From positions 32,001 to 96,000 of the forward strand of contig CAVTRN010000001.1 of NCBI GenBank assembly GCA_963737155.1: a DNA stretch of 64,000 bases, given 5' to 3'. Positions 6,394 through 39,361 of the stretch are shown in pieces. The DNA is from Nitrospirota bacterium (GTDB lineage Bacteria; Nitrospirota; UBA9217). The position numbers and the translations under genes are program-made. The notes below the pieces were generated by a model. The model worked only from the letters and a program-made list of their open reading frames with translations, searched no databases and was not told where the DNA came from. Within the stretch, counting starts at the first letter, position 1; every line of letters starts with the position of its first letter.

Positions 6394-7406
6394 CCTGTTC
6401 TCCTTTTAAGAATCAAAACTTTGACGCTATAAGGCAAAGCGGGAAGGCGGGCAAACATCTCACGATCTTCAATATACCACTGACGCAAACCTGCTATTTT
6501 GTTCCCAAGGGCCTCCAAATCGTTGCGTTCGATAGTCCGGTGAAACACCCCGACGATGTCAGATCGTTGAAATTTTGAATCGCCAATGACCTTCAGGAAT
6601 GATGCATTACCATCAGCGACGACCAAAGCCGGAGCAGATGCACCACGGTCAACCTGTTCTGTCCTCGCATTAAAAAAGGTAATGCGGGAAGCAAGGCTGG
6701 ATTTTGACCATCCATGAATAGTCAGGAGTGACGCGAGGTTATGCTCTCCAAGCGTAGAGCGAAAACGGATTGAGGTGCACACTTCGCGGGTTGCGTTTTC
6801 ACCGGTGGCTCGGCCAGAAAGGCAAAGACCCGAAAATGATCTTCTGAGGTTATCCGGATTTATTTTCGCCATCTCAATAATTTGAGAATATGCGTCCTCC
6901 GGTAAAACACCCTGATCATTACTTAATTGAATTGGAGGCTCTCCGTCTATTTGCCAATCGATCGAATGTCGGGGATCTTGCCACCACGTTCCACCTTGGT
7001 TCGAGTACACGAGGTGTCGCTGCCGCAAATCGGTTTGTTCCGATATTTTATAGCGCCTTCGACCTTGATGCCGCACCCAGCCAGTCGCTTCAGAAGCAAA
7101 GCCACATCCAATTCTCTCCGGATGGCAGCGACTTGAACAGTCCTGACAATAGTTGAGATACTGACGCGCATATCTAAGGAGCGCATCAAAGTGTCCATCT
7201 ATATCATTTGCATCAGGATTCCCTAAATCTCTTATAAGAGCACCAAACGTAACAAGACCGGCCGCAGCCGAGTCGCACGGCATAGAAATAAGAGCAATTC
7301 TCCGCGGTTCTGAAACATGTGCCGGCCAAACATAGCCAAATTGAATCAAAAATCTAACCCATGTTGGAATTGGCCGCCACTGTAGATTGGATTCAACAAA
7401 TAACAT
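6390..7406 (-). CDS. Hypothetical protein, first gene of DISARM-like operon
   Basis: 338-aa ORF with a 4-bp overlap to the next gene and a Cys/His cluster CQDCSSRCHPERIGC. Confidence 0.6.
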   Translation of the reverse strand: MLFVESNLQWRPIPTWVRFLIQFGYVWPAHVSEPRRIALISMPCDSAAAGLVTFGALIRDLGNPDANDIDGHFDALLRYARQYLNYCQDCSSRCHPERIGCGFASEATGWVRHQGRRRYKISEQTDLRQRHLVYSNQGGTWWQDPRHSIDWQIDGEPPIQLSNDQGVLPEDAYSQIIEMAKINPDNLRRSFSGLCLSGRATGENATREVCTSIRFRSTLGEHNLASLLTIHGWSKSSLASRITFFNARTEQVDRGASAPALVVADGNASFLKVIGDSKFQRSDIVGVFHRTIERNDLEALGNKIAGLRQWYIEDREMFARLPALPYSVKVLILKRRTG

Positions 7407-11032: not shown

Positions 11033-11061
11033 TTGCTTTATGGGAATAAGTATGGTATAAA
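11033..11061 (+). promoter_or_regulatory. sigma70 promoter for LexA-like gene, probably leaderless
   Basis: TTGCTT-17-TATAAA with an extended -10 TG. ATG at 11069 lies 7 nt downstream and there is no RBS. Confidence 0.55.
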
Positions 11062-11068
11062 AGATAGC

Positions 11069-11737
11069 ATGCATCCTATTCAAGAAAAACTCTTCGAACT
11101 GTCGAATAAGAAAAACCTTGCCGAACTGAGTCTCAGGGAGATGGCCGGCGCAATCGGCCTGCCTCACGAATCCCCCCAGAAAATCAAGCACCATCTTCTT
11201 CAGCTCCAGAAGAAAGGGCTTGTTACCATAGATCGCGCCAAGGGTACGATGGAGCGTGCATCATCGACGCCTGGCTGGGCAAAAGGCCTCCTACACACGG
11301 CTTCCCATCTTTTTTCCATCCCTGTCATCGGAACCGCGAATTGTGGGCCGGCCACCATCTTTGCCGAGCAGAATTTCCAAGGGATACTTCGCGTATCGGG
11401 CAAGCTAGTCGGGCGCTCGAAGCCGACGGGACTCTACGCGATCAAAACCGATGGATCGTCCATGAATCGCGCCGAAGTCAATGGAAGGCACATCGAGGAT
11501 GGAGATTATGTCATCATCAATAAAAATGATGTCGATGTGAAGAGCGGGGATGTCGTCTTGGCAATTATCGACAACAAAGCGACCATCAAAAGGTTTATCG
11601 ACGACCGTGCAAACGGGCAGATCGTCTTGATGGCCGATTCCTCGTATGATTACGAACCTATTTACCTCCATCCCGATGATGATTTCAGCATCAGCGGGAA
11701 AATTGTTGCGGTAATTAAAAAACCGGTTCGCGCATAA
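11069..11737 (+). CDS. LexA/S24-family autocleaving transcriptional repressor
   Basis: N-terminal winged HTH (SLREMA...HHLLQLQKKG), cleavage loop IGTANCG, catalytic GSSM and TIKRF. Start placed at MHPIQ. Confidence 0.85.
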   Translation: MHPIQEKLFELSNKKNLAELSLREMAGAIGLPHESPQKIKHHLLQLQKKGLVTIDRAKGTMERASSTPGWAKGLLHTASHLFSIPVIGTANCGPATIFAEQNFQGILRVSGKLVGRSKPTGLYAIKTDGSSMNRAEVNGRHIEDGDYVIINKNDVDVKSGDVVLAIIDNKATIKRFIDDRANGQIVLMADSSYDYEPIYLHPDDDFSISGKIVAVIKKPVRA

Positions 11738-11790
11738 GAGAAGAAACAAATGGTTATCAAACAAAAAGATTATTATTAAGGGATAAAAAT

Positions 11791-12843
11791 ATGGCATACG
11801 AAATAGACTACATTCCCGTTGGAGATGGAGAAAAAGGTGGCGATGCAATAGCATTGCGCTTTGGGAACCTTGCGGGACCGCGTGCGGAACAGGTAGTGGT
11901 TGTTATTGACGGCGGTTTTCAAGATTCCGGCGAAGAGTTGGTAAACCACATAAAGACTTTCTACAAGACGGACTTGGTGGATGTTGCGGTTTCAACTCAT
12001 CCGGATGCAGACCATGCATCGGGGCTTTCTGTTGTTATGGAAAAACTTCGCGTAAGCACGTTAGTCATGCATAGGCCATGGGAACATGCAGCGGATATAA
12101 AAGGGATGTTTAAAAACGGGCGCATTACCGTTGCCGGGCTTGAGGACAGAATAGAGAAATCGCTCCAGTATGCAAGTGATCTGGAAGCACTGGCAACCAA
12201 AAAAGGGGTACGCATAGTGGAGCCGTTTCAGGGGGTGACAGGCTTTAATGGCGCTTTGCATATCCTAGGGCCGTCACAGGAGTATTATGAAAGCCTTTTG
12301 CCTCTTTTCCGCGCTACTCCTGAACCGGTAAAATCTATCGGGATCTTTGCTCCGATAAGAAAAGCAGTGGAAGAAGCTATCAAGTGGGTCCAGGACCAGT
12401 GGGACATCGATCTGCTCGACGATGATGAAGATACGACATCTGCCGAAAACAGTACAAGCGCGATCATGCTCTTTAATCTCGATGGCCATAAGCTATTGTT
12501 CACAGGCGACGCGGGAAAAAACGCTTTACATCTTGCGGCCGATTATGCAGAATCACAGGGAATCCAGCTCACCGATCTCCAGATATTGGATGTGCCTCAC
12601 CATGGCAGCAGAAGAAACCTGAGCAGTGGGGTGCTGAAGAGAATCAAGGCTAAAACTGCGTCTATCTCTGCACCAAAGGCCTCACCGAAACATCCTTCTA
12701 AAAAGATCATCAATGCTTTGAAAAAGCACGGTTCGAAAGTTTATGTTGTAAAAGGCCAGAAGCTTTGTCATCCCTACCAAGCACCGGAGCGTGGCTGGTC
12801 TTCCGCAACCGAAGAACCGTTTCATGATTATGTCGAAGAGTAA
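11791..12843 (+). CDS. MBL-fold metallo-hydrolase (ComEC/Rec2-like)
   Basis: VGDG..GD, IDGG, THPDADHASG, FTGDAG, VPHHGS, HP. Confidence 0.9.
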   Translation: MAYEIDYIPVGDGEKGGDAIALRFGNLAGPRAEQVVVVIDGGFQDSGEELVNHIKTFYKTDLVDVAVSTHPDADHASGLSVVMEKLRVSTLVMHRPWEHAADIKGMFKNGRITVAGLEDRIEKSLQYASDLEALATKKGVRIVEPFQGVTGFNGALHILGPSQEYYESLLPLFRATPEPVKSIGIFAPIRKAVEEAIKWVQDQWDIDLLDDDEDTTSAENSTSAIMLFNLDGHKLLFTGDAGKNALHLAADYAESQGIQLTDLQILDVPHHGSRRNLSSGVLKRIKAKTASISAPKASPKHPSKKIINALKKHGSKVYVVKGQKLCHPYQAPERGWSSATEEPFHDYVEE

Positions 12844-17617: not shown

Positions 17618-18994
17618 TTATGGTTTGTATAACGGCACCTCTGATCTTTTATTTATACTATTTCCGAAACTTGACCCAAACGACTGCTGAGCTTCGATAA
17701 CAATGGTGTGGCTAAGTGGTCGGCGAACAGATTCTGGTGTAACACCAGCTTTCAAAGCATGCATGACACCGACCGCTTCAAGATAATTTTCCACAATAAA
17801 GAGTTTGCCCGGTGCAAACGGCAAAGCATCCAATCTGTTCTTCATGCGGTTCTTATTTTCTCTGACTGCTATTATCGGTATCCCCTGCTCCAGAGCAGCT
17901 AAAGTCGGAAGGCCGATGCATCCATCTGGAATAACAAGACAAGATATATCTGTCGAGCTCAAGACCCCCGCGCGTCCAAAATCCGCCGGATTCGTCACTA
18001 GCCTGGGGCTCTTATGAAGCCCCTTGAGGATGCAATGCAAAAAAGTCAACGAGATTGCTTCAGCGGCTTTTCTGGGCTCGACAATTCCTAAGTCGAGATT
18101 CATAATGTCCTTCGATTCCATCATAGGTGAATGGGCCGATGGGGTATTAAACAACATGGAAATTGCATGAGTCAGCATTGCTTCTACCCCACCCCACGGG
18201 TTTATTGTCTCTTCAGAAAAATATTTTAGATGGGTAGTGTTGGTTAAATTTATAAGCGATGATATGGCGACGGCATCATACTGAGAACGGTATTCGGTCA
18301 GAAGTTCACATAACCGCTCAAGATATTCTATCCGCCCGACAGCTCTCCCCGAGCTTGAAACGAGGGCATCCATCTGGATTGTTTCTTCCATCTTTACAAC
18401 TAAGGGACAATCCAATCCCATGGACGCACGTACAGCAGAGACTGAGTTTACCGTGGCCTCACAGAAATACTCGTCTTCATGTTTGTCCATAACAAGCATT
18501 ATCCTGTTTGATCTTACTTTCTGCAGGCCCACTGTTCCCATCAGTATACGTGCTATGATGCTGCCTTCCACGTAGAGCCCATTTTCCGGCAGTTCATTGA
18601 TGTCGGACGCATTAACCACGTTCGGATGAGTTATGAGTGAATCGCATGCCGAGGCCAGGAGCCGCGCCACAGGGCCTCCATCTCCGGAATGGCCGCCAAT
18701 CTCTGCATCTATGCCGGTGGGGATGAGCAAAACAGTATTGAAGTGGTCAGAATTCTCATAGCTTCTCCGGTTAAATTCAAAGATGGAACTCTGCGACGGC
18801 ACAAAGTTGTAATGGACATCGGACATGACTCCGAGCTCACAATGATACCCCGTGTTGTCAGTCTGCGTAACAACAAAGCGAACCGGTATTTTCCCAAGAG
18901 GGATCTGCTTTAATACCTCATTTGAAAGATATGACAATATCCCTTCATGATTGTGGTTATTAGGTATGGCAACTTCCTGCTCATAAAGTAACAT
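17618..18994 (-). CDS. DUF3326 domain protein
   Basis: IPTGIDAEIGGHSGD, LITHPNVVN, NPWGGVEAMLTH, PRKAAEAIS. Likely ATG at 18994 with a GGAGAG RBS inside the end of the upstream gene. Confidence 0.8.
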   Translation of the reverse strand: MLLYEQEVAIPNNHNHEGILSYLSNEVLKQIPLGKIPVRFVVTQTDNTGYHCELGVMSDVHYNFVPSQSSIFEFNRRSYENSDHFNTVLLIPTGIDAEIGGHSGDGGPVARLLASACDSLITHPNVVNASDINELPENGLYVEGSIIARILMGTVGLQKVRSNRIMLVMDKHEDEYFCEATVNSVSAVRASMGLDCPLVVKMEETIQMDALVSSSGRAVGRIEYLERLCELLTEYRSQYDAVAISSLINLTNTTHLKYFSEETINPWGGVEAMLTHAISMLFNTPSAHSPMMESKDIMNLDLGIVEPRKAAEAISLTFLHCILKGLHKSPRLVTNPADFGRAGVLSSTDISCLVIPDGCIGLPTLAALEQGIPIIAVRENKNRMKNRLDALPFAPGKLFIVENYLEAVGVMHALKAGVTPESVRRPLSHTIVIEAQQSFGSSFGNSINKRSEVPLYKP

Positions 18995-20171
18995 TTTTAA
19001 TCTCTCCGCATCGTGAAATGAAATCCTCGTAACCAAATTCCTTTTTTAATTCCAAATGCCCGTCCTGCGTATACGCATAGATCGAGGGCAAATTGACACC
19101 GTTGAACATGTGCGCCTTTACCATAGTATAGGCCCCCATATATTGAAAGACAATCCGGGAACCTAATTCGAGCGGTTCCGCAAATCTATATGTGCCGAAG
19201 ACATCACCTGCAAGGCATGTGCAACCCGCAAGGATATACTCGTGTGGTCCATCGGATGATTCCTGCATGATTTCGGGCCGATACTGATACTCGAATATCT
19301 CCGGCATATGGTTAACAGTAGTATCGAGAACGGCTACTTTTTTTCCATCGCTCTCGAAAATATCGATAACGCTCGATACAATATATCCCGCCTCTTCAAC
19401 TACACCTTGGCCGGGCTCGATAAAAACATCGAGTTTGTATTTATCCTTTATGAGCCCTATGGCCGCGTAAAAGTCGGCCGGATCGGCCTCGTTGAACAGA
19501 TATCCTCCCCCCAGATTGATCCAGGAGATGTCAGACAAAAGACGGGGGATTTGGCGATCCAAATACTTCACGGTTGCGAGCAACGGCCCATAGGTTTCGG
19601 AGTTGCTATTCGTGTGGAAGTGAATACCTTGTATTTCGCTGCAAAGCCGCTTATTCTTTTCAAGAGCTTTTTGGAGTTGTGTTAGCGGAACTCCAAGCTT
19701 GGAATGTTTTCTGCAAGGGTTATATCGTTTGTCTTCAACAAAAGACAGTTGAGGATTGATTCTTAATCCACAGCTTGCTTGCACAGATGCCTGCCTCGAA
19801 AACCGTTCCCACTGGGAGAGCGAGTTGAAACTGATGTTGTCGGCTACTCCAGTAATATCCTCTATTTCGCAAGGCTTATATCCGGGTGTTACCATGTGAA
19901 CAGTTCCGGAAGAACCAAGAACCTCTCTTGCTAGTTTTGCCTCAAACAGGGAGCTTACCGAAAAACCATTTAAGTGAGGAACCATCAAGGGCAGCGCATC
20001 ATAGACAGCAAAGGACTTTAATGAAAAAAACACCTTGCAGCCAGCTTTCAGATTATCCGCTTTTAGCATCTCTAGTGATTGAATGATAGTTTGTTCATGA
20101 TATATGAATGCCGGCGTCTGTTTGATGCCCGAATATATTGAAATGTTTTTTTTCGTTATTCCGTTGTACAT
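18981..20171 (-). CDS. nspC: Carboxynorspermidine decarboxylase-like PLP enzyme (fold type III)
   Basis: FSLKSF, YNPC..SKLG, IHFH, INLGGG, IEPG, TCLAGDVFG, YTMVK..FNGVNLP. Confidence 0.85.
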   Translation of the reverse strand: MYNGITKKNISIYSGIKQTPAFIYHEQTIIQSLEMLKADNLKAGCKVFFSLKSFAVYDALPLMVPHLNGFSVSSLFEAKLAREVLGSSGTVHMVTPGYKPCEIEDITGVADNISFNSLSQWERFSRQASVQASCGLRINPQLSFVEDKRYNPCRKHSKLGVPLTQLQKALEKNKRLCSEIQGIHFHTNSNSETYGPLLATVKYLDRQIPRLLSDISWINLGGGYLFNEADPADFYAAIGLIKDKYKLDVFIEPGQGVVEEAGYIVSSVIDIFESDGKKVAVLDTTVNHMPEIFEYQYRPEIMQESSDGPHEYILAGCTCLAGDVFGTYRFAEPLELGSRIVFQYMGAYTMVKAHMFNGVNLPSIYAYTQDGHLELKKEFGYEDFISRCGEIKNVTL

Positions 20172-20906
20172 TTAGGCACCCTTCGGTATAGATATGTTAA
20201 AAGGAGGCCCATCCAACTTCTTAAATCTGCAAAAAGCTCTCGCGACTGCAGCAAATTCGTGATTTGCAGCCATGAGCGTGCTAAATATGTTTTTCTTATT
20301 TGTTAAGATACCTTGTTGCGCATTATGATATGCATGCAATAAAGCAAAATATTCTGAAAGAAGCTCTTCAACGATAAAAGTTCTGTGCCTTTTTGTATAG
20401 AACGGTGCATGCAATTTAACAATATCAATTGTAAGTCGCCCCATTTTACTGCTATTCTTCGCTTTAGGAATACCTAGCTCCTCGAAATTTGACTCATCCA
20501 CAATAAAGTCAATGTGGTCTTCTGGATCTATTTTAGGATCACTTGGATCAATTAAAAGAGTTTTCCCCCTCTTAGAAGAGCTTTTTTTTAAATAAACAAC
20601 TTTGGGATTATTGCTATCATTTGTCAGTTCAACTGGAAATTTGTCGGATTTACTTCCATTACACTGAGCACATGCTAACAAAAGATTCTTCCAATCGTTC
20701 TTTAAAAATTTAAAAATAGACTTCGGCTGAAAATGCTCGACTGCTTTTGAATGGCCCTCGTCTGGGATTAACTGTTCACAATAACAGCACTTCCCTTTCT
20801 GCATTTGCCAAAGGGTTTTTACAACTTTTTGCTTGTTGTAATGAGTCCCCTTCTGCGGAGAATTTTTCAAAATATCAGGCGCCAGAGCCCGGTTAACTTT
20901 TATCAT
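20172..20906 (-). CDS. ptuB: Septu PtuB-like HNH endonuclease
   Basis: KCCYCE, VEHFQPKS, WKNLLLACAQCNGSK, LIDP...DPEDHI. Confidence 0.85.
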   Translation of the reverse strand: MIKVNRALAPDILKNSPQKGTHYNKQKVVKTLWQMQKGKCCYCEQLIPDEGHSKAVEHFQPKSIFKFLKNDWKNLLLACAQCNGSKSDKFPVELTNDSNNPKVVYLKKSSSKRGKTLLIDPSDPKIDPEDHIDFIVDESNFEELGIPKAKNSSKMGRLTIDIVKLHAPFYTKRHRTFIVEELLSEYFALLHAYHNAQQGILTNKKNIFSTLMAANHEFAAVARAFCRFKKLDGPPFNISIPKGA

Positions 20907-22203
20907 TGAATATTTTTTGTTCTAATGTTTTGATGTTTTCCCGCATTGCTGTATATATATCTGCCTGCACATCTCTTACGAATTCCGTATCGCCAGTCGG
21001 CTGTATTGCGTTCCTTAAATATTCTTTTATCTCGTTATATTTTCTATTTTCTTTTGCCGTACGCTTTTTCCCTTTGCCAGCCAATTCCGATATTTCTTTC
21101 AATACATTTTCCAACTCCTCATCAGTTTTTACCAAATGCCCAAATGGTTTAGAAGCCAGTAGTTGATCATATTGTAATCCTTTGAACCCGATAATTTCTT
21201 TTTCACTAAAAATATAGTCTTGAATTTTGCTCTGTTCTGGTACAAAAGAGAAATGTATAACCTTTGATCCACTAAATTTGGATCCCTTGGGCTTGACTAA
21301 TTGGCCAATACTGCCTACGATCAATGGCGAGTGAGAAGTTGTAATGAATTGCACATTGGGGAAAGCCTCTCGTAACCTATGAACAATATTTCTCTGCAAT
21401 TTAGGATGTAAATGCAATTCGACTTCATCAAGCAAAATAATTCCACTAATATTCTTCGGATTGCTTTCTTTCTGACGCCGCCCTGCGTGGTAGATTTGCC
21501 AGCCGATGAAATCCAATAGCCATGTGAATGTTGTGCGGTATCCATCCCCGAAGTCTTCAAGAAAAACGTCTCCCTTGGGGGTTTTGACAACAATGCCATT
21601 AGGTGAGCTGTCTAAAATAATATTTTGTTTCGATGTATTAAAGATGTCAAGCATTAAAATGCTTTCGATTAATTTCAGCAATTGATGCTGTCGTTTCTTA
21701 TTCTGTCTATTTAATATTAATTCAGGATTCTGCAAGGATGACGCATAATTGAACATGGTATATACAGCTTCTAATATAGAATAATCGCTAAAGCTGTTAT
21801 CACCCGGGATCGATCTCTGAATTCCATACCCACAAACAAAAACTTTACGTCTGAGATCTTTCCCCCTTATCACATTCTGATAGATTGTTTCAAAACCTTT
21901 TTTACTTTCCAAAACAGTTTCTATGATTAGTGATTTTTTTGTTTTAGGATCGAAAAGAGTGATTTTGATTATTCCTCTTCTCGATAAGTCTCTAATGAAG
22001 CTGCCATATAATTCTTTCATGAGCGCTGCACCGCTCAACTCGTCGCAAAGACCTATTGCAATACAGCGCAAGAAACATGTCTTTCCAGATGCATTGTCGC
22101 CAAGAATAGTATTCCACCGCGCGGGAATGCCACCATTTTCGAATGAAATCTTTATCTCATCGAAACATCTAATATTCTTTATGTAGACTTTGGAAATATA
22201 CAT
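20893..22203 (-). CDS. ptuA: Septu PtuA-like ABC ATPase
   Basis: MYISKVYIKNIRCF, GDNASGKT, signature-like FGDGY, LLDEVELHLHPKLQ and TSHSP. ATG at 22203. Confidence 0.85.
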   Translation of the reverse strand: MYISKVYIKNIRCFDEIKISFENGGIPARWNTILGDNASGKTCFLRCIAIGLCDELSGAALMKELYGSFIRDLSRRGIIKITLFDPKTKKSLIIETVLESKKGFETIYQNVIRGKDLRRKVFVCGYGIQRSIPGDNSFSDYSILEAVYTMFNYASSLQNPELILNRQNKKRQHQLLKLIESILMLDIFNTSKQNIILDSSPNGIVVKTPKGDVFLEDFGDGYRTTFTWLLDFIGWQIYHAGRRQKESNPKNISGIILLDEVELHLHPKLQRNIVHRLREAFPNVQFITTSHSPLIVGSIGQLVKPKGSKFSGSKVIHFSFVPEQSKIQDYIFSEKEIIGFKGLQYDQLLASKPFGHLVKTDEELENVLKEISELAGKGKKRTAKENRKYNEIKEYLRNAIQPTGDTEFVRDVQADIYTAMRENIKTLEQKIFNDKS

Positions 22204-22434
22204 ATTTAAAAAATTGTTGTTATTTAATCTACTAACTTCGCTTAGCACTCTAAGCTAAGCAGATTTATAAGGTAAGTTAACGCATTTTCTGATATTATTG
22301 TTGTAAAAAAATGAGCGAAGAAGTACTAATAGAAAAAGACTATATCATGGTTGAAGAAGAAAATGCAAGCGGATTTGCTCCTGCACATTGCGGTATCCTG
22401 GCTTATTAATGTCTTTACTCAATGAGGTGCGAGA

Positions 22435-23619
22435 ATGCCGAAGAAGGTCAGCATCGTCACAGGGCCAATAGTTGGCCTTCGCTCTACAAAATTTATTGAA
22501 GAAACTACTGCGTTTGCGAAGACTGCCGGCGAAAAAGTCGTTCATTTCAACTTATTCAGCGAAATACTCGATCATTGTGGCATCGTAGCCCGTAATGCTT
22601 ATGAAGAGATTCTGCATATTGGCAATCTGTTCAACGGCTATGAATATCAATTCAGGTGCATGCGCGAAAAAGCTTATCTGTCTCTTGCCAGAAAGATTGA
22701 TCGCCTGGGGAAGGACGTCAGTGTCATTATCAGGACTCCCGCGTCGATAGAATGGCGGGGATACAACTTGATTCTGAAGGACCACCGGATTATTGCGGAA
22801 GCAATAATGCCGGACCTGATTGTAACCCTTATAAACGCCGAATGGAAAATAAAAGATCATTTAGCAGGGAATTATGGCAAGCATGTTTTAAAAGTGATTG
22901 CACAGCAAAAGGAACTGACAGTCCCCAAAATACTGGAGTGGCTGGCTTCTGAAGTATCGGCCAGCGAAGACTGGGCTGAGTGGGCAAGTCACCTGACGAA
23001 AAAGAAAGTGAAACACATCGTTTTCGGAATGGAAACGCCAGGCTACAAGGACAGAAAGAAATATGTTCGCGATGTTGAAGGCCTCGCGAAGCTGGTAACG
23101 CAGAAAGATGTTCCCACTTTTTACACATCGTATTCCATGACCGTAGCGACTGAACCTGTAAGAAAGAAAATAAACGACGTTATCTGGAAGCTGCGAGCAT
23201 ACGGCGTAGTCATTGATCCTGCATCGATAGAACTCGGGACCAATGTCGACAAAGAACACGAGAATATAGTTTTCGCCTATACCATTTGCAGAGACCTGCG
23301 ATGGGATGTGCAAAAGGTTGACGCAGTGGTTGCCATCCACCCTTATGATGAAATGCCGCCACTCAGTACGGGCATGATGGACGAACTCGGTCATGCCCGC
23401 GCGTATGGGAAAGACAGATATTTAATACTTCCAAAAGGTGGAGGTAGCCCATTCACGCGAGATAATTACGTGCCTGCCAACCATGTCTTTAAGACAGAGG
23501 CAGAGTTCTTTAATTTTGCGGAAAATAAACGGAGACCTACGCTCAAACCCAAGTACGAAAAGTTCCAGAAAGCATTTGCGACCTGGCAGACAAAACATGC
23601 GAAAAAAGATCAAAAATAA
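22435..23619 (+). CDS. Archaeal adenylate-kinase-like domain fused to nucleoside deoxyribosyltransferase-like domain
   Basis: N-terminal IVTG with a degenerate P-loop, PDLIVTL and ILEW..SE. C-terminal YTSYSMT, DP, RDL..D.VVA and STGMMDELGHA...GK. GAGG RBS. Confidence 0.6.
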   Translation: MPKKVSIVTGPIVGLRSTKFIEETTAFAKTAGEKVVHFNLFSEILDHCGIVARNAYEEILHIGNLFNGYEYQFRCMREKAYLSLARKIDRLGKDVSVIIRTPASIEWRGYNLILKDHRIIAEAIMPDLIVTLINAEWKIKDHLAGNYGKHVLKVIAQQKELTVPKILEWLASEVSASEDWAEWASHLTKKKVKHIVFGMETPGYKDRKKYVRDVEGLAKLVTQKDVPTFYTSYSMTVATEPVRKKINDVIWKLRAYGVVIDPASIELGTNVDKEHENIVFAYTICRDLRWDVQKVDAVVAIHPYDEMPPLSTGMMDELGHARAYGKDRYLILPKGGGSPFTRDNYVPANHVFKTEAEFFNFAENKRRPTLKPKYEKFQKAFATWQTKHAKKDQK

Positions 23620-23633
23620 TTACGGGAGGCATC

Positions 23634-24359
23634 ATGCAGAGATTACTTGTAAGCGTTCGGGGACCGCAGGAAGCAATTGCAGCTATTAAAGGGGGGGCTC
23701 ACATAGCTGATGTCGAATATCCTGCTTCTGCTCTTGGGACCCCATATCCGCTCAATATCCTCACTGTTCGCAATAGGCTGAACAAGGCCGGATATAAGAG
23801 GATACCGGTGTCAACCAATATTGGTGAGGTACCGGGTGTGCGTGCTTCATCTTGCCAGGCGGCCTTGGGCGTAGCAACTGCGGGGGCTGATATCATCAAG
23901 TGCGGCATGGCCGAACTACCGTATGATGCTGCGGTTTATCTCGGCAATCTTATGGTCCGGACCATCAAGAAATTCTATCCGAGAAAAAAAGTTGTGACTG
24001 CCGTGTTCGTCGATGACGACATGAGAAGATACTTTGACCCCTTTGCCGAAGGGATAGCGTTGGTGAAAGAGATCAATGCAGATGGCATCCTTATCGATAC
24101 TTTCAATAAATCGATCGAGAAAGGACTTCTGGATTACTGTATAAAGAAGGATTTGAGAACACTTGCTAAAAAGTGTCACAGGGCTGGGAAGGAAGCCTGG
24201 ATTGCGGGCTCCATTACAAGGGAAGATTTACCGGACCTATGGGCTACGGGCGTTGATGTAATTTGCGTCAGAGGCGCTGCTTGTGAGAAGACAGGAAAAG
24301 GGCGATTTGGCGAAGTTAAGGCAAAAATCGTTAAGGATCTTGTTTCGACCTGTCTATAA
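23634..24359 (+). CDS. MfnB / 4-HFC-P synthase family TIM barrel (variant active site)
   Basis: LLVSV..EA..A..GGA.I.DV.YP..LG, GADIIKCG, LIDT..K, AGS and VRGAAC. GGGAGG RBS. Confidence 0.8.
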   Translation: MQRLLVSVRGPQEAIAAIKGGAHIADVEYPASALGTPYPLNILTVRNRLNKAGYKRIPVSTNIGEVPGVRASSCQAALGVATAGADIIKCGMAELPYDAAVYLGNLMVRTIKKFYPRKKVVTAVFVDDDMRRYFDPFAEGIALVKEINADGILIDTFNKSIEKGLLDYCIKKDLRTLAKKCHRAGKEAWIAGSITREDLPDLWATGVDVICVRGAACEKTGKGRFGEVKAKIVKDLVSTCL

Positions 24360-24446: not shown

Positions 24447-25481
24447 CTAAAGACCAAAGGCCCGTAAATCATTCTTCACTGCTTCGACACCACTCCAGTC
24501 CGAGATTCGTCGGCGAAACATATAATAGCATGGGGAATCAGGCCATGAAAGCTGCATTGCAGCCTTGAGTGCATCTGCTGGTCGCGCCTGAAGTAGAAGT
24601 TGCTCTGAGGCAGGCGGGATTTCTCTTGGAATTGTGTCCCAAATCGCTGAATCTTTAGAGGTGAGCCCGGCACGTACGCATGCACAAAGCTGTTTCGGAT
24701 GGCTGTAGCTACGCCTTCCGCGCGCCACTGTCGCAGGAAATAGATCGCCTAAAACACTAACGACAGATATATAAGAGCGAAGGACTGAATCGGCAATTAC
24801 ACTGGCCGAGGGACGGATGTCCCGTAGCGTACACCAGTGCTCCCATGACTTCCCCCCGTTTCTCTGACTATCTATAGGTTGATCGAACTGCTGGCGTTGC
24901 CATCCGTTGAACCGGTAGGCGTCGTCATTGGCTCCGCGTGCTGATATATGGCCTATCGAAGTTCCTTCAACAAACCCAAGCAATTTCGATCCCTGAAGAA
25001 GCACCCGTGCCGCTGGTGAGGCTAGAGGATGCGTCGAGGCCTGTCCTTCGGATTCTACTGTCAGAGATGAAAAATATTGGTCAAGAGTGGGGTTATAAGA
25101 GATTTCAATCCATAACAGACGACCATCGGTCGCTTGCCGAACTCCACCGGCTGCAACTACGTGGCATGAAATGTGCCAAGCTCCATTGTCACCTGAGGCA
25201 CCAGGGCCCAAATCCGCCCCATTAATAATTGTCCGATCAAGCCACATACGCCGAATTGCTTCGAGGTTCTCATCGCTATCGGATAAACTTCCTCCCTCTT
25301 CAATTTGAAAGCCGAAAATGCCGCGTTGCATAGTCGCCTCCTGGCGAACCTCAGAAAACAAGGCATTTCGAGTTGTTTCTTTGTCCTTCTTGCGCTGCCA
25401 ATAAATGCGCCCTACGACTACGGCTGTCCCAATCAAAGCGGCAATGAGCACTGCATTTATAATTAGCTGCAGGACTGTCAT
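24447..25481 (-). CDS. Hypothetical protein with N-terminal TM anchor
   Basis: 344-aa ORF with an AAGGA RBS, hydrophobic N-terminus then RKKDK. Confidence 0.65.
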   Translation of the reverse strand: MTVLQLIINAVLIAALIGTAVVVGRIYWQRKKDKETTRNALFSEVRQEATMQRGIFGFQIEEGGSLSDSDENLEAIRRMWLDRTIINGADLGPGASGDNGAWHISCHVVAAGGVRQATDGRLLWIEISYNPTLDQYFSSLTVESEGQASTHPLASPAARVLLQGSKLLGFVEGTSIGHISARGANDDAYRFNGWQRQQFDQPIDSQRNGGKSWEHWCTLRDIRPSASVIADSVLRSYISVVSVLGDLFPATVARGRRSYSHPKQLCACVRAGLTSKDSAIWDTIPREIPPASEQLLLQARPADALKAAMQLSWPDSPCYYMFRRRISDWSGVEAVKNDLRAFGL

Positions 25482-25933: not shown

Positions 25934-28039
25934 TCATTTTTTCCGTTTTTGTCTGTATCGCGGTGAATGAGTAAGACTCAAATGAGAACGTACAATGACA
26001 TCCATGTGGTTGCTCATGGTAAAGTCTGTATAATCGTATTTTTTAGGAGTTCGTAATTTACGAATGCATAGAGCAAATATAGGAGCAGGGACTATCATCA
26101 AAAGTCGTTTATGTTCAAAAAAAAGAGCCTTAGTTCTATCCTTCTCGTTATCTGTTAAAGCTTCGCTTTTCCCACGTCTAACCGCTATAGCGAAACTGCC
26201 ATATTCGCCGCTTGTATAATCTAATATTTGTCTGAAGTCGTCAGGTGTTAGTTCTTCGTAGTTCTTGCATTCAAAAACAATTTGCCTGCTGCGGTAGTCC
26301 TCGTAAATTCTTTGCCAGAATGTTGTTTTAGTAATGTTAGTTGCTACAACATCTCTTTGATTCAAAGCTGCTGTCGGATTTGGTTTAAGTTCAATGTTCG
26401 TTAAAGATCCAGCGAACAATAATCTGACTGCCCTCGCTACCCACGTTTCAAAGGCACTACTGCCATCATGTCCCGTGGGGATGCCCGATAGTTCCTCAGG
26501 AAGCCTTCCGAGTCGCTTCAGGCGTAAATTGAACGTATCACTTTTTGGCGGGGCAGTATATTCATCGTTTACCTTGATTAACATTTCTGATGGCTCAGAT
26601 GTCACCGATATGTCAAGCGCCTTCCAGTAACAAGGGTGAATAAGGGTTTCACGATTCGGGTCCGCGGTTAGAAGTTCAGACATGGCACCATCATGACAAA
26701 ACAAATAATTACCAGAGCTAGCATCTTTAAGTCCTATAAACCCGACACTGTAAAGGGCCGAAAACATCTCGCTACCGGTTTCAAAAAGAATTAAATCTCG
26801 AGCGGCACTATCTGCATAGTCGTTATGATCTGCGATATATTGCAAATGATCTGATACTGCTCGAAAAGGTTGCAACGCAGGCAGACCGTGAAAGCTTGTC
26901 ACAAAAAGACGAAGTCCCGGTAAAACTTTATCGTACTCTTTACACAAGTCCTCGAGCCTGTACTGTGAAATACTAATCGCGCTCTTTTCTATATCGTTCT
27001 CAATAAGAACATTGCGTCCTTCGCGAGTTGCGTTTACATATGATTCGTTGAGTAGTACCAGAATATCCCTAGGTCGAAATAGTGTAAATCTCAAGCACTT
27101 ATTAAAACCTTCGCGATTCTGAAGTTCGCGCTGAGCGAATCTGTTCCAGACCTTCACTTCATTTTCTACGCTATCTAGTTTAAGTACAATGCGCAACCGG
27201 GCAGCAATAAAATGGAAGAGCGACTCTTCATTCCACTGTAAGCGGAGTGTATGCCCTTCAATATGGCGTGTAAAATCATCGTCGAGTTGTGCAAGAGCTC
27301 GAATCATGTTATCTCTGATAAACAAAATTGGATAAAAAGGAAATCGTCTTTCTCGATATTCTGATGCTGTTCTAGCAAGACCACCAAGAATGGATACGGA
27401 AGGGACATCTGGAACCCATGCTTCATCGAGACGGTCGTAAAGAGCTACGATCCGAAGCTCCGTTTTTTCGAGCGCCTCATGAAGGGAATCAGTAACTTGT
27501 CTAACCTGGTAGTTTGTCGCAATTATTCGTGCAATTTCTTCCTTCGAAGGAGAACCAGATAATGTTCTTTTCAAAATTGCCATGCAATTTGTAATGCCAC
27601 TTCCGGTGCAATAATCTTGGTGTCTTTTAATATACTCATTTAGAAATACTGCATTTTCTGACTTATTAAACAAATAATGTGTAGAAACAGCACTTGTTGA
27701 CCTGAGCAGAAAATGCACTGTCCAGAGTAAACGTGATATAGGACGTAGAAGGCGATATTCTTTGGATATAGATGCGAGAAGCGATTGCATCTCTAGCATT
27801 TCATAATCTTGCGGCTCTTCAGTAATTAATATCGTACCAGTATCAGATGACAAAACATCTTTTAGCCGTTGATATATTGCACTCTTCCCAGTTCCTCGAC
27901 GCCCAACAACATAGCTAAAATCCGTGGTGTGAAGCAAAGCTTGGTAGTCAGCTGTTTCAATAAAACCCTGGCTCAACATTTGCCGATCTGCTTCGGCTTG
28001 TGCTGATCCAAGTAGGTTTCCAATCTTTTTATTTTGCAT
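25934..28039 (-). CDS. Sll1717-family P-loop ATPase with C-terminal restriction-endonuclease-like domain
   Basis: LGSAQAEAD, VVGRRGTGKS, YDRLDE, FIRDNM, RPRD and LYSVGFIG. C-terminal AFE...RDVV...FECKNY. Confidence 0.8.
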   Translation of the reverse strand: MQNKKIGNLLGSAQAEADRQMLSQGFIETADYQALLHTTDFSYVVGRRGTGKSAIYQRLKDVLSSDTGTILITEEPQDYEMLEMQSLLASISKEYRLLRPISRLLWTVHFLLRSTSAVSTHYLFNKSENAVFLNEYIKRHQDYCTGSGITNCMAILKRTLSGSPSKEEIARIIATNYQVRQVTDSLHEALEKTELRIVALYDRLDEAWVPDVPSVSILGGLARTASEYRERRFPFYPILFIRDNMIRALAQLDDDFTRHIEGHTLRLQWNEESLFHFIAARLRIVLKLDSVENEVKVWNRFAQRELQNREGFNKCLRFTLFRPRDILVLLNESYVNATREGRNVLIENDIEKSAISISQYRLEDLCKEYDKVLPGLRLFVTSFHGLPALQPFRAVSDHLQYIADHNDYADSAARDLILFETGSEMFSALYSVGFIGLKDASSGNYLFCHDGAMSELLTADPNRETLIHPCYWKALDISVTSEPSEMLIKVNDEYTAPPKSDTFNLRLKRLGRLPEELSGIPTGHDGSSAFETWVARAVRLLFAGSLTNIELKPNPTAALNQRDVVATNITKTTFWQRIYEDYRSRQIVFECKNYEELTPDDFRQILDYTSGEYGSFAIAVRRGKSEALTDNEKDRTKALFFEHKRLLMIVPAPIFALCIRKLRTPKKYDYTDFTMSNHMDVIVRSHLSLTHSPRYRQKRKK

Positions 28040-28294
28040 GGTGTTCCTTTTTATTTCATATGTGGGAAGTCAAATGCAAGAGTGGCGCACAATCTGCTGT
28101 TGTTGCCATTATTTATCGGTCTTACGATAGAATGGACTTCCTCTGTAACGGATTCCTATCCCCACAAATATATGCTTGATTCGGTGACATGTCAACAACG
28201 CTGAACGGTGATGTCAATTGGAGGGGTGTCGTAGCGATAATTAATGGGCAGAACGCTCACGAATACAGCTTGAAAATTACATTATGGCCATCAA

Positions 28295-28320
28295 ACGACC
28301 TTCGGGTTGTAGACCCGATG
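28295..28320 (-). repeat. tRNA-fMet fragment (att-like relic)
   Basis: 14 exact bp and 21/26 overall versus 34329-34354. Anticodon stem TCGGG/CCCGA is retained. Confidence 0.55.
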
Positions 28321-28536
28321 GACTTTTTTGTGCTCCGTTTTTAAGATGGACAGCATATCAACACTCGATACTTTCAACTTGAAGCAAAGTATTCGTCCAA
28401 TTTCCGAACGTTGCACTCCACACCTACTTATGTATAATGCCAATATTATGACAGCGGTATGAAATCCGGTTTGATTCTTGCAATGAGCGTTTCGGCCTTC
28501 GCGGCAGTAGCCAGATTGGCGGCGTAAGTTCATAGA

Positions 28537-29184
28537 TCAAAATGACGTAAATATCTCAGGCCCTTTATTAAACTCGTATTCCATTACATCAGATAAATTA
28601 TCCCATAGATTATGCTCGGACGGATAAAAACGATCAAAAATATCTTTTTTCGTAGCTAGTATTTCGACACTGAGTGGAACCTCATTGACTCGTGTTTTCA
28701 TTGGTTGCGGATTGAAATTTACGGCACCGGGGCAGATGAATTCCCACACATTTGAATATAATTGGTGAATAATTCGGTTCACGGACTTATGATGTGGATG
28801 ATCATACTCTCCTTTTGTATTATGTGTGAAAACTAACGATGGAGCGAAACATTTTTCTTGAATAGCGTTTTTCCAGGCCAGAAATTCATTATCGGATAGA
28901 TTCTTCATGCCTGTATCTTTTTGGCCAAGTGTAAGATATGCCACAATACCAACACCAAGACTCTTTAAGTATTCCATTGCTTTTTTAAACTGTCTGAATC
29001 TTTCTTCGTTTTCAGGCCCTGTAAAAGTGACAACCGTCCAATGCCAATTCGGGTAATACAGCATTGTGCCACCAGAAAAGATTATTTCATCATCAGGATG
29101 CGCAACTGCTATTAGGGCATTCACGCTCTTATCTGTCGGTATATTCCAATTCATGACTGAATTCTCCGCTTTACTTACCATCAC
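28537..29184 (-). CDS. PIG-L/LmbE family deacetylase
   Basis: AHPDDE and GEYDHPHH. Confidence 0.85.
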   Translation of the reverse strand: MMVSKAENSVMNWNIPTDKSVNALIAVAHPDDEIIFSGGTMLYYPNWHWTVVTFTGPENEERFRQFKKAMEYLKSLGVGIVAYLTLGQKDTGMKNLSDNEFLAWKNAIQEKCFAPSLVFTHNTKGEYDHPHHKSVNRIIHQLYSNVWEFICPGAVNFNPQPMKTRVNEVPLSVEILATKKDIFDRFYPSEHNLWDNLSDVMEYEFNKGPEIFTSF

Positions 29185-29253
29185 AATAGCCTCACCAGCC
29201 TATGTAAATACAGTCAATAACGTTGCCACAATCTTGCCTGACGCTCGTTTGGG

Positions 29254-30000
29254 TCAGTCCGCGATATTGACGTAGGTGATTGGATTCTGTGCTCCTTGAG
29301 TGAAAAGGTGCCCCACATAGGAATTGATATAATGTTGGCGAAGGGAGTCTTCTGCCAGTGTACCAACAAATTCCCAACGCCCACGGCGGGGGAAACCTTT
29401 TCCATTATATCTGACATTGAACGTGGATCCCGAAGATACCCAACTTGTGATTCGGTAAACCTCACGGACAACTCCCTCGAAAACCGCAAATGCGTATTCC
29501 GCTTTGTCGCGTTTGTTAGCAACTTTCCACGCAGAGCGAGTAGCATCATAGAGTTCGATAGGAGTCATGCCGTAGTGGTATAGCTTGTTGATCCTAATGA
29601 GGATGGAGGGTTCTGTAATCCTGGCTTTACGATGGGTATAGTGTGCGATTAGTTCTTGGAGAGGCATTCGACCATATTTAGCGCCGCGACCGCGGACTGC
29701 ATTGGCAAGGTTATGAATTCCCATCAAGTCAATTACGGCTGCTTCAATTGCAAGAGCAGTCTTTTCGTTCGGAAGACCGTGAGCGAGAATATCTATTTGG
29801 GGCTCGACTCCAGACGAGCGCATCTCCTTGATGATTTTGGCAACGTCGCGCTCCTCCTCAGCGTTAAGATGCGCAAGGGCGCGTCCACCTCGACCTTTTC
29901 CAACATAGAAAACCGTGTCATCGAGCGGGTTAACGTAGAGGTAGACGTAAAACCCAAGCGTACGCGCGACAGACTGAGGAATCTTTGGAGAGAGAGCCAT
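29254..30000 (-). CDS. LEM-3-like GIY-YIG endonuclease
   Basis: FYVY...FYVGKG..R..H, EAAVID, LAN; C-terminal LYDATR.AW domain. Confidence 0.85.
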   Translation of the reverse strand: MALSPKIPQSVARTLGFYVYLYVNPLDDTVFYVGKGRGGRALAHLNAEEERDVAKIIKEMRSSGVEPQIDILAHGLPNEKTALAIEAAVIDLMGIHNLANAVRGRGAKYGRMPLQELIAHYTHRKARITEPSILIRINKLYHYGMTPIELYDATRSAWKVANKRDKAEYAFAVFEGVVREVYRITSWVSSGSTFNVRYNGKGFPRRGRWEFVGTLAEDSLRQHYINSYVGHLFTQGAQNPITYVNIAD

Positions 30001-34302: not shown

Positions 34303-34379
<77 letters not shown>

Positions 34380-38117: not shown

Positions 38118-38363
38118 ATGCAACGAATTCATGCGCGTTCTTCGGTAAGCATTAGCGATTTGAAGAAAAATCCCTCAGGCATCATAACTCAGGCACAAGG
38201 TGAAGCCGTAGCCATCCTCAATCACAACCGGGCCACTGCCTATCTTGTGCCCGCCGCGTCTTTTGAAGCGATGCTAGAGCGGCTTGACGATATTAAACTT
38301 CGCCGTTTGGTGAAGGCGCGACGGAACGAGGCTTCTGTCAAGGTAGCGCTTGATGAGCTATAG
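38118..38363 (+). CDS. Phd/YefM (StbD-like) antitoxin
   Basis: SISDLKKNP...VAILNHN...AYLVP. Confidence 0.9.
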   Translation: MQRIHARSSVSISDLKKNPSGIITQAQGEAVAILNHNRATAYLVPAASFEAMLERLDDIKLRRLVKARRNEASVKVALDEL

Positions 38364-38637
38364 TCTTGAATTCAAGGAATCAGCCTTGAAAGAGTGGCGT
38401 AAACTCGACGAGAGCATCAAAGTGCAGTTCAAAAAACGACTTGCTGGGCGTATTATTTCGCCCCATGTAGCTTCTGCTCGATTGTCCGGAATGCAGAACT
38501 GCTACAAGATCAAACTCAGGGATGCCGGTTACCGGCTTGTATATGAGGTTAACGACAACCGGTTGGTGATTATTGTCATCGCAGTAGGCCGTCGCGACCA
38601 TGATCTTGTTTACAAGCGTGCAGAAAACCGTATGTAA
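38350..38637 (+). CDS. relE: RelE/StbE toxin
   Basis: ALKEWRKLD, YKIKLR..GYRLVY, AVGRR. Confidence 0.9.
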   Translation: MMSYSLEFKESALKEWRKLDESIKVQFKKRLAGRIISPHVASARLSGMQNCYKIKLRDAGYRLVYEVNDNRLVIIVIAVGRRDHDLVYKRAENRM

Positions 38638-38861
38638 AAAATCAACCAGCTACTTGGATACACAACTAGATTTCCCCGGCATCAACCGCAAAATCAGAAT
38701 ACCCTTAATATATTTTGCATGGTTCCAATCTTCGTGACGCCGCAGATATCACGTAGAAAGCGCTACAAGAGGGATAGTGTAAAAAAGATGAAAACAACCA
38801 AATAATCCGATTTGGGATGTCATGACAGAAAATGGAAAACAACCATAAAATCCGAATACCC

Positions 38862-39079
38862 TAATAAATTTCCCGATATTCCCGAATGCCAAGCCGCTCC
38901 AGTTCCGGTGGATAATGCCCCCTTACGGGCGACGTTTGCAGGCTGAGTATGGTTTGTTCGATGTCCAGAAAAAGCCGTTCAGCCTTCTCTTCGGAATCAT
39001 TGCGTTTGACATAGACATACACATCATCTATGTCCCTTTCCGCGTTTTCGAGGATATAAACCGAAAAGAGCTTTGTCAT
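38862..39079 (-). pseudogene. N-terminal half of ParE/RelE toxin interrupted by ISL3
   Basis: AERDIDD...RGHYPPELERLGIREYREIY, then a stop created at the IS end. Confidence 0.85.
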
Positions 39080-39288
39080 TTGCCTGCTGCCCGTTTTTTC
39101 CGCAAATCCCTGAAAGCCTTTGTAGCCGGTTTGTATCTCCCCGCCTCAAGGCTTTTTTTGCTCTGGGCAAGAATTTTTAACATGGCGAGGCTCTCTTGCA
39201 GCTCCTCATACTCATTGATGCCCTGAATAACCGCCTTTGCCTCTCCATTGAGCGTAATAATAACAGGACTTCGGCTTTCTCCGACCAC
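39076..39288 (-). pseudogene. Phd/YefM antitoxin, probably 5'-truncated
   Basis: PVIITLNGEAKAVIQ...ESLAMLKILA; the usual N-terminal ~20 residues are missing. Confidence 0.65.
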
Positions 39289-39327: not shown

Positions 39328-39361
39328 AGCCCGACGCGCTACCGGTCTGCTCCGGCCCGCG
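39328..39361 (-). pseudogene. Degenerate 5' half of tRNA-fMet
   Basis: 30/34 identical to 34346-34379. Confidence 0.75.

Follow-up and report, generated by a model that had tools for sequence, protein, structure and literature searches.

Why would a bacterium carry, side by side and away from any methanofuran pathway, a gene that joins a kinase fold to a nucleotide glycosidase fold and a gene for a barrel like the methanofuran enzyme MfnB? The question is raised by a two-gene operon of a Nitrospirota bacterium, in a stretch of 64,000 nucleotides that we analysed as a whole (the window; assembly GCA_963737155.1, contig CAVTRN010000001.1, positions 32,001 to 96,000, forward strand). The first gene, open reading frame 1 (ORF1, 394 aa), fuses an archaeal adenylate-kinase (AdkA)-like domain to an NDT-type glycosidase domain, and the second, ORF2 (241 aa), encodes an MfnB-like TIM barrel without the Schiff-base Lys. 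Our favoured answer, to which we give a probability of about 0.45, is a nucleotide-denial defence against phages: judged from sequence comparison and predicted structure, ORF1 would hydrolyse 2'-deoxynucleoside 5'-monophosphates (dNMPs), ORF2 would consume the sugar phosphate and partner nucleases would feed the pair.

An earlier note on this DNA had described a two-gene operon with a 14-bp gap, and both ORFs were found on the plus strand with 14 bp between them, together with the motifs that it quoted (TGPIVGLRST at ORF1 residues 9-18, S311-T-G313-M-M-D-E317, and D26-V-E28-Y-P in ORF2). Searches returned 299 ORF1 homologues at E ≤ 0.001, with 120 listed (150 of 162 representatives at the 50% level), and 1149 ORF2 homologues. 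Between two of the loci described below, L001 and L008, purifying selection was seen both on ORF2 (dN/dS 0.026/0.248, about 0.10) and on the NDT domain of ORF1 (0.006/0.258, about 0.02). Given these numerous homologues and this selection, both genes are real and not chance ORFs. Synonymous sites were saturated between the window and L001 and L002, with the proteins still 70-85% identical. By tblastn ORF1 matched neither the phage nor the plasmid collection, its distant relative P0256 found no match among the phages, and neither ORF1 nor ORF2 was matched by any PADLOC model. Complex prediction of ORF1 with ORF2, the latter entered without an alignment, scored 0.00, a value that speaks neither for nor against a complex.

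Searches of Pfam, PADLOC, NCBIfam and the PDB with the single ORF1 sequence found nothing; resolvase matches were set aside (E > 0.1). A 129-row profile matched archaeal adenylate kinases (AdkA) in its first half (E 6e-15) and DNPH1/Rcl (E 0.002) and CMP N-glycosidase (E 0.004) in its second half. The AlphaFold2 (AF2) model of ORF1 (pLDDT 94) superposed on AdkA 6ln3 over residues 1-225 (Z 17.2, rmsd 2.6, 194 aligned) and, over residues 224-371, on NDT 7o62 (Z 13.1, rmsd 2.3, 129 aligned) and MilB 4ohr (Z 9.9, rmsd 3.0, 130 aligned), and Foldseek matched it to DNPH1 (E 1.5e-4). Profile and structure thus agree on the AdkA plus NDT-fold architecture first read from the letters, with the NDT-like S.G...E kept.

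The Tyr-Asp/Asn-Glu catalytic triad of the NDT superfamily was present in ORF1 as Y230, D287 and E317, the correspondence to NDT/DNPH1 residues being assigned by motif order in the fold. Y230, G313 and E317 occurred in 129/129 aligned rows and D287 in 128/129. The 5'-phosphate pocket of monophosphate-acting NDTs is made of small uncharged residues, where nucleoside transferases have Asp/Asn (PMC12884076), and the conserved S232, S234, S311, G313 and S338 of ORF1 fit such a pocket at the level of sequence. In both NDT and DNPH1, specificity for 2'-deoxy substrates is associated with a Tyr that bonds to the catalytic Glu (PMC11204291; PMC12884076), so a dNMP substrate was predicted for ORF1. From its motifs and model, ORF1 is probably a dNMP glycosidase.

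The kinase-like half does lack the P-loop GK(S/T), as had been noted. However, methanococcal AdkAs are also without the P-loop Lys (GVPGVGGT in profile alignments), so that loss of GK[ST] alone is no proof of inactivity. More telling are a one-residue insertion in the P-loop of ORF1 (GPIVGLRST) and its RTP in place of the AdkA DTH. R100 was found in all 76 near relatives and Pro replaced the DTH His in ORF1 and 67 of these 76; the His was retained in 45/47 distant relatives, and a GK-type P-loop occurred in 14 of 114 full-length representatives. The AdkA fold is therefore present without the GxxGxG[KG][ST] and DTH motifs, and NCBIfam AdkA gave no match to ORF1 and at most 58 bits, against a cut-off of 155, to distant relatives. 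We consider a non-catalytic nucleotide-binding role likely for this domain on the basis of its motifs. The wider family is tied to nucleotide pools by relatives carrying NUDIX, a domain found in 3/16 distant relatives scanned and in 0/30 of a further set. Distant AdkA-NDT relatives with NUDIX at the C-terminus include P0324, P0373 and P0389.

ORF2 was homologous over its full length to PF04476 (E 3e-39, 135 bits against a cut-off of 22.4) and matched Methanocaldococcus jannaschii MJ1099 (E 5e-24), reading DVEYP where MJ1099 reads DVKNP; the E28 codon is GAA (23715-23717). Lys27 is the Schiff-base former in MfnB (PMC6604932), and K155 has been described as catalytic or substrate-binding (PMC11365854). 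In all 120 of the closest ORF2 homologues listed, Lys27 was replaced by Glu (D[VAI]E[YF]P in 120/120, DxK[NED]P in 0/120), and DxK was kept in 4/4 canonical MfnB plasmid controls, of which two come from one-carbon (C1) clusters and two from dehydrogenase clusters of Streptomyces. D25, K85 and D151 of MfnB are taken here as active-site residues. In a 69-row ORF2 alignment D26, N62, K89, D155, K159 and the phosphate loops were invariant, and with these remaining active-site residues held constant the site is remodelled, not decayed. The alignment to MJ1099 and the listed homologues thus uphold the description of an MfnB variant that lost the Schiff-base Lys and kept its other active-site positions.

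With Glu for Lys27 in every one of these closest homologues, ORF2 falls outside MfnB proper. That it is nevertheless an ordinary synthase of 4-(hydroxymethyl)-2-furancarboxaldehyde phosphate (4-HFC-P), serving a methanofuran pathway encoded elsewhere in the genome, is most improbable. Its Pfam score is above cut-off, many homologues are automatically annotated as such a synthase and one comes from Methanoregula, but the two NCBIfam MfnB equivalogs scored far under their cut-offs (117 bits against 341; 114 against 304), and a tree of 129 columns, on a set holding no archaeal MfnB, split the four canonical MfnB from all DxE forms with support 94.7/96. The absence of Lys27 among the listed relatives, set against its retention in the controls, points the same way. 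No mfn or C1 gene was found by Pfam scan among the 65 window ORFs of at least 120 aa, in line with what had been claimed, and none was recognised in the scanned ORFs of the 18 loci described below, whereas mfn or tetrahydromethanopterin (H4MPT) C1 genes do adjoin the canonical controls L021 and L022. Databases label this MfnB-like clade 4-HFC-P synthase though the catalytic Lys is gone; it is therefore unsafe as a methanofuran marker in metagenome-assembled genomes (MAGs), and new TIM-barrel chemistry in the DxE clade would be directly assayable. Two Streptomyces plasmids (L019, L020) carry a canonical DxK MfnB with an aldehyde dehydrogenase, an alcohol dehydrogenase and a methyltransferase, probably a furan natural-product cluster outside methanofuran synthesis.

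To place the pair across genomes, 185,579 GTDB species genomes were scanned with two peptide patterns, which gave at least 18 ORF1 loci (L001 to L018), a lower bound. They span Nitrospirota, a deltaproteobacterium, Bacteroidota, Ignavibacteria, Actinomycetota, Bacillota, WOR-3, Verrucomicrobiota, Bathyarchaeia and Thorarchaeota, with, for example, 80% identity between proteins of one bathyarchaeon and one bacterium. An MfnB-like gene without Lys27 lay within 5 kb of ORF1 in 13/18 loci, or 13/16 where the contig runs past ORF1 (it ends inside ORF1 in L007 and L014); L009, L010 and L017 are truly without such a partner. Four partner architectures were distinguished: type A (241-249 aa), type B (373-479 aa, with AhpD-like genes), type C (476-607 aa) and type D (about 800 aa, without a match in the plasmid collection). 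Canonical DxK was found in 0/12 partners tested and the DxE pattern in 11/12, L016 falling outside the strict pattern and reading DAE by eye; TN[IV][GS] was present in 11, and all 12 had both the beta-4 Lys and AG. In types C and D the DxE position was placed by spacing, MAFFT having left it unaligned.

A second line of evidence came from contig sizes. For 26/56 of the closest ORF1 clusters the longest contig was equal in size to that of an ORF2 homologue; 100 offset controls gave 0.37 such matches on average and never more than 2. Among the remaining ORF1 clusters the figure was 0/64, which would be expected of clusters that carry types B-D. The pair forms a genuine mobile unit, and its conservation outside methanofuran clusters, which had been proposed, holds in bacteria and archaea. 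The two enzymes are very probably functionally coupled. In L017, a Verrucomicrobiaceae MAG, deoC (11061-11792) lies directly downstream of an ORF1 relative (40% identity) and encodes a DeoC scoring 219 bits on TIGR00126, above the cut-off of 117, which supports the suggested link of the ORF1 partner to sugar phosphates.

Such a tight operon at most loci could also be read as a toxin-antitoxin module, in which a toxic glycosidase ORF1 is bound and inhibited by ORF2 as a catalytically dead barrel; the loss of the catalytic Lys and the way partner type broadly tracks the ORF1 tree would fit. The tracking has exceptions, since type B occurs with two distant ORF1s and the type C ORF1s are not one clade. 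We find this reading quite improbable: ORF2 keeps an invariant remodelled site (D26, E28, N62, K89, D155 and the phosphate loops), other genes lie between ORF1 and partner in L003 and L018, and each gene occurs without the other, ORF1 in L009, L010 and L017 and a type C partner in L023, a plasmid of Microvirga lotononidis (NZ_CP141049.1, cultured host). The toxin-antidote pair put forward in the earlier note is accordingly not supported.

Some loci show damage or rearrangement. ORF1 of L008 (9995-11133) carries a frameshift and lacks about 14 codons, and the MfnB-like genes of L015 (487-1602) and L004 (11441-13544) are split, by decay or assembly error in each case. Tandem or fused AhpD/peroxidase-related domains stand beside the type B partner in L003 (6811-8928) and L018 (9725-11326). 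In L023 (10496-20257) an EEP protein, the type C MfnB-like protein, a GMC oxidase, a 299-aa protein and a caspase-like protein are encoded; the 299-aa protein has NDT-like motifs, but its score was reached by 7/500 shuffles, and the resemblance falls short of significance. A Bradyrhizobium homologue of that protein (L024) comes after a split S1/P1 nuclease.

The earlier note had missed that larger cassettes, whose nucleases can be exchanged, are built around the pair. An operon of a Septu PtuA-like ATPase, a PtuB-like HNH nuclease, a decarboxylase and a DUF3326 protein stands head to head with the pair in the window, L001, L002 and L008 (Table 1). In L002 an S-adenosylmethionine (AdoMet)-decarboxylase-like gene replaces the carboxynorspermidine-decarboxylase (NspC)-like one. 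Upstream sequence was also present at a fifth type A locus, L014, where an IS200 takes the place of the operon. Among the four operons, in which the two genes hold the same position, the ATPases are 30-44% and the HNH proteins 25-40% identical. The DNA flanks of L001 and L008 are 94% and 91% identical, but their ATPases only 30% and HNHs 32%; since near-identical flanks hold such divergent proteins, the effector has been replaced in place between the two loci. In the window the ATPase and HNH genes have 36-37% GC against 44-48% in the flanking genes. The window PtuA/PtuB pair is under the NCBIfam PtuA/PtuB cut-offs, while PADLOC recognises the ATPase and HNH adjacency of Septu. Scanning the divergent gap for promoters and terminators gave chance-level results, and DUF3326 had no match in the plasmid collection.

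Table 1. Features of the gene pair and its cassette, in positions of the window.
Feature	Positions	Strand	Basis and remarks
ORF1, AdkA-like (probably pseudo-)kinase domain + NDT-superfamily N-glycosidase domain	22435-23619	+	AF2 pLDDT 94; structure and profile matches
ORF1 residues 1-225, archaeal adenylate-kinase fold	22435-23109	+	P-loop insertion; Lys position = Ser17; DTH to RTP (100-102)
ORF1 residues 224-371, NDT/DNPH1/MilB fold	23104-23547	+	Tyr230, Arg286-Asp287, Ser311-x-Gly313, Glu317, Ser338-Pro-Phe
ORF2, MfnB-like TIM barrel	23634-24359	+	PF04476 and MJ1099 alignment; Lys27 to Glu28, ATVGD to TNIGE; Asp26, Lys89, Asp155, Lys159 kept
Septu PtuA-like ABC ATPase	20893-22248	-	PADLOC PtuA E 3e-55; divergent from ORF1, 186 bp gap
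Septu PtuB-like HNH nuclease	20172-20906	-	PADLOC PtuB E 3e-26
PLP-dependent decarboxylase, NspC-like	18981-20171	-	TIGR01047 327 bits, under cut-off 409
DUF3326 protein, last gene of divergent operon	17618-19036	-	PF11805 E 9e-90; 63-64% identity to L001, L002, L008
C3 accessory protein, 293-aa conserved core	24447-25328	-	Convergent with ORF2 (87 bp gap); ORF readable from 25481

Other loci carry other nucleases: EEP in L003, L007, L011, L012 and L018, PLD in L004, L005 and L016, and trypsin-S1/P1-PLC fusions in L004, L006 and L013. A nuclease or phosphoesterase lay within 5 kb of ORF1 in 13/18 loci, and loci bearing a partner were nearly always so flanked. The five without a nearby nuclease are L009, L010, L017 and the two shortest contigs (L015 has an unassigned 400-aa candidate), so that the three loci truly lacking the TIM barrel lack the nuclease as well.

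From these parts the favoured scheme of nucleotide dismantling would run as follows. In infection the partner nucleases (PtuAB, EEP, PLD, trypsin-S1/P1) may free dNMPs from DNA. ORF1 would split the 2'-deoxynucleoside 5'-monophosphate, perhaps a modified one, into base and 2-deoxyribose 5-phosphate (dR5P) via Glu317, with Tyr230 excluding ribonucleotides, and its AdkA-like domain, instead of phosphorylating, may bind nucleotide and gate or oligomerise the glycosidase. ORF2 would not join two trioses and may take a ready-made C5 sugar phosphate, a predicted new chemistry, which it would either cleave in the manner of DeoC via Lys89 or dehydrate via Asp26/Glu28/Asp155. By destroying dNMPs the core would block the recycling of nucleotides by the phage. 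This scheme accounts for an active site of the 2'-deoxy type, for the nucleases nearby and for the substitution by deoC, and a CMP-hydrolase domain has been proposed as the nucleotide-pool effector of type VIII Thoeris (bioRxiv 10.64898/2025.12.03.692087).

On the question of a defence role for the unit, we lean towards yes. A defence island occupies the window between about 3 and 30 kb, with NERD-helicase, EcoRII with a methylase and Vsr, PDC-M48B, PDC-M68A/B, the Septu-like pair and PD-T4-3; a defence-island setting is thereby supported for the window, and for some of the other loci too. The PADLOC scan of the 18 loci covered 55 + 72 selected proteins out of their ORFs, and its figures are raw counts that carry no background rate; on these counts the defence-gene neighbourhood is suggestive.

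Several findings weigh against nucleotide-denial defence. Recognisable defence genes (PtuAB, HamB, Ppl-like, CBASS cyclase) were found in only 6/18 loci (L001, L002, L007, L008, L011, L016); elsewhere PADLOC gave only generic TPR/trypsin-like matches in four loci, weak ones in L018 and none in seven. L010 and L017 are metabolic or housekeeping settings. At the protein level, the narrow NDT-domain profile had no match in the PDB, the match to DNPH1 is modest and fixes neither the base nor even the sugar, and the ORF2 profile had no sequence similarity to the L017 DeoC. The insertions in partner types B-D and the redox neighbours (AhpD-like, flavin monooxygenase, GMC oxidase, 2-hydroxyacid dehydrogenase) are more in keeping with biosynthesis than with simple disposal. 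The decarboxylase-DUF3326 operon is likewise less well explained by disposal and favours a biosynthetic signal.

The settings of L010 and L017 raise the possibility of a non-defence role, either sanitising damaged or modified dNMPs as DNPH1 does or catabolising DNA for carbon with ORF2 replacing DeoC, the island being incidental. The deoC of L017 stands among tRNA ligase and PriA genes, L010 has a carboxylase and a thiolase, L012 metal transporters, and L009 can be counted with them; strong conservation across domains (the bathyarchaeal and bacterial proteins above) and the NUDIX fusions of distant relatives would also suit housekeeping. However, the distribution is very sparse, over unrelated phyla in the GTDB scan, PtuAB, Hachiman, CBASS or restriction genes recur as company, and effector swapping is not a housekeeping trait. 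We regard such a role as unlikely. The earlier view that homologous pairs in housekeeping contexts would tell against defence applies in part, to L010 and L017.

The redox and decarboxylase genes bear on another explanation, the synthesis of a small molecule for signalling or chemical defence, which we think possible but doubt. ORF1 would then be a dR5P transferase or donor, and ORF2 with tailoring enzymes would make a non-canonical nucleotide or furan-type metabolite that switches an effector or poisons phage replication; the tailoring set would comprise the decarboxylase and DUF3326, AhpD-like proteins, oxidoreductases and phosphoesterases, and the effectors PtuAB, PLD and C3. In one tentative version, of about the same standing, the NDT domain would pass dR5P to the rewired MfnB, which, without an aldol step and with the ring-dehydration half kept, may yield a furfuryl-phosphate-type or another non-canonical molecule derived from the sugar; the decarboxylase and DUF3326, or AhpD-like and redox enzymes, would then tailor it into a signal or guard molecule. 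That signal would control PtuAB, the PLD and EEP phosphoesterases, the trypsin-S1/P1 fusions and C3, the furan product being suggested by the chemistry of the MfnB steps (PMC6604932).

Several observations favour such a route. Phage DmtZ is an NDT that transfers dR5P to a non-canonical base (PMC12884076), DUF3326 and a decarboxylase occur together in one polyamine biosynthetic cluster (bioRxiv 10.64898/2026.06.12.731819), Streptomyces has clusters outside methanofuran synthesis in which canonical MfnB is accompanied by aldehyde and alcohol dehydrogenases, and the available account of Retron-Eco7 has its PtuAB under the control of a separate module. A conserved enzymatic core with swapped effectors, the latter set apart in the window by their lower GC, and a cassette order that persists between the window, L001 and L002 despite saturated synonymous sites would also be expected. 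Yet the tailoring genes vary by clade, the effectors share no receptor domain, ORF1 stands alone in L009 and L010 without effector or tailoring genes, and the type A locus L014 has its IS200 where the operon should be.

The unit can be compared with known systems. MfnB (MJ1099, PDB 4RC1; PF04476) shares the full-length TIM barrel, the Asp25, Lys85, Asp151 and Lys155 positions and the phosphate loops; ORF2 differs by Glu for Lys27, TNIGE for ATVGD, the lack of mfn/C1 context and clade relatives with large insertions (373-804 aa). ORF1 has the fold, Tyr-Asp-Glu pattern, S-x-G-x-x-x-E and, by motif order, the small residues where a 5'-phosphate would sit in common with DNPH1/Rcl, MilB and DmtZ, but is fused to an AdkA fold and in an operon with a rewired MfnB. 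Residues 1-225 share the fold of AdkA (PDB 6LN3, 1KI9) and differ in the P-loop insertion and the change of DTH to RTP.

Type VIII Thoeris (ThsI) and the type II retron RcaT also use an NDT-fold enzyme in anti-phage defence, as far as their available descriptions go. The unit here differs in being without TIR, TPR, reverse transcriptase or noncoding RNA, and an aldolase-fold partner is not described for either in the parts of the sources available. Pfam and PADLOC scans of the scanned neighbours found no TIR, and ORF1 carries AdkA, not TPR, which sets it apart from type VIII Thoeris; no reverse transcriptase family turned up among the ORFs scanned in the window and at the 18 loci, and Rfam found only a tRNA in the window, which sets it apart from type II retrons. 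RcaT had been offered as an analogue. The use of an NDT fold in defence stands, but RcaT is not a close model: it is tied to NAD+ hydrolysis and ADP-ribosylation (bioRxiv 10.64898/2026.10.13.758329), and the nearest solved sequences to ORF1 are DNPH1 and MilB, which are dNMP/CMP hydrolases. Septu (PtuAB) and Retron-Eco7 resemble the unit in the PADLOC-matched ATPase and HNH adjoining the core in four type A loci and L016; the difference is that these two genes share their transcript with a decarboxylase and DUF3326, stand in an operon that faces ORF1-ORF2 head to head, and have no reverse transcriptase.

In the top-ranked literature results the ORF1-ORF2 pair was not described, subscription papers and supplements such as candidate tables of defence screens lying outside that scope. 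Under the favoured reading the unit would be a variant of nucleotide-pool immunity that rests on an MfnB clade turned to a new function, and, if defence is its role, a nuclease, glycosidase and sugar-phosphate lyase combination would join such immunity in bacteria and archaea. The signalling explanation would be categorically new and, if true, would bring new immune messenger chemistry and retron-free control of Septu-like effectors.

The C3 family (about 295 aa, 307 homologues; AF2 pLDDT 95.8) occurs near ORF1 in 4/18 loci (L001 6967-7932, L004 15783-16665, L005 7047-7970, L006 9102-9989). Searches of Pfam, the PDB and BFVD gave it no match (best Z 3.4), which is not in itself proof of a novel fold, and the plasmid collection gave none either. 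Because its longest contig was equal in size to that of the ORF1 cluster in 3/120 cases only, C3 is a loose associate of ORF1. Invariant W51-H52, E121, E163, C166, R203-G-R205 and H210 suggest an enzyme. The Septu-like ATPase and HNH with decarboxylase and DUF3326 (window 17618-22248; L001, L002, L008) may be a separate, polyamine-linked defence system.

Further features lie along the island. On the minus strand, 1-7406 holds a helicase cut short by the edge of the window (weak DEAD match), which we take to be DrmA-like of DISARM, the NERD-helicase and unannotated ORFs of 537 and 338 aa, and 25934-30000 holds a 701-aa AAA ATPase whose C-terminal domain is PDC-M36A-like, a PIG-L deacetylase and the PD-T4-3 GIY-YIG nuclease. 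A tRNA-Met gene (34303-34379, minus strand) lies near the island end. A 26-nt, 92% match to part of it was found at 39328-39353, and it flanks two Phd/ParE toxin-antitoxin pairs (38118-39288) and an ISL3 element.

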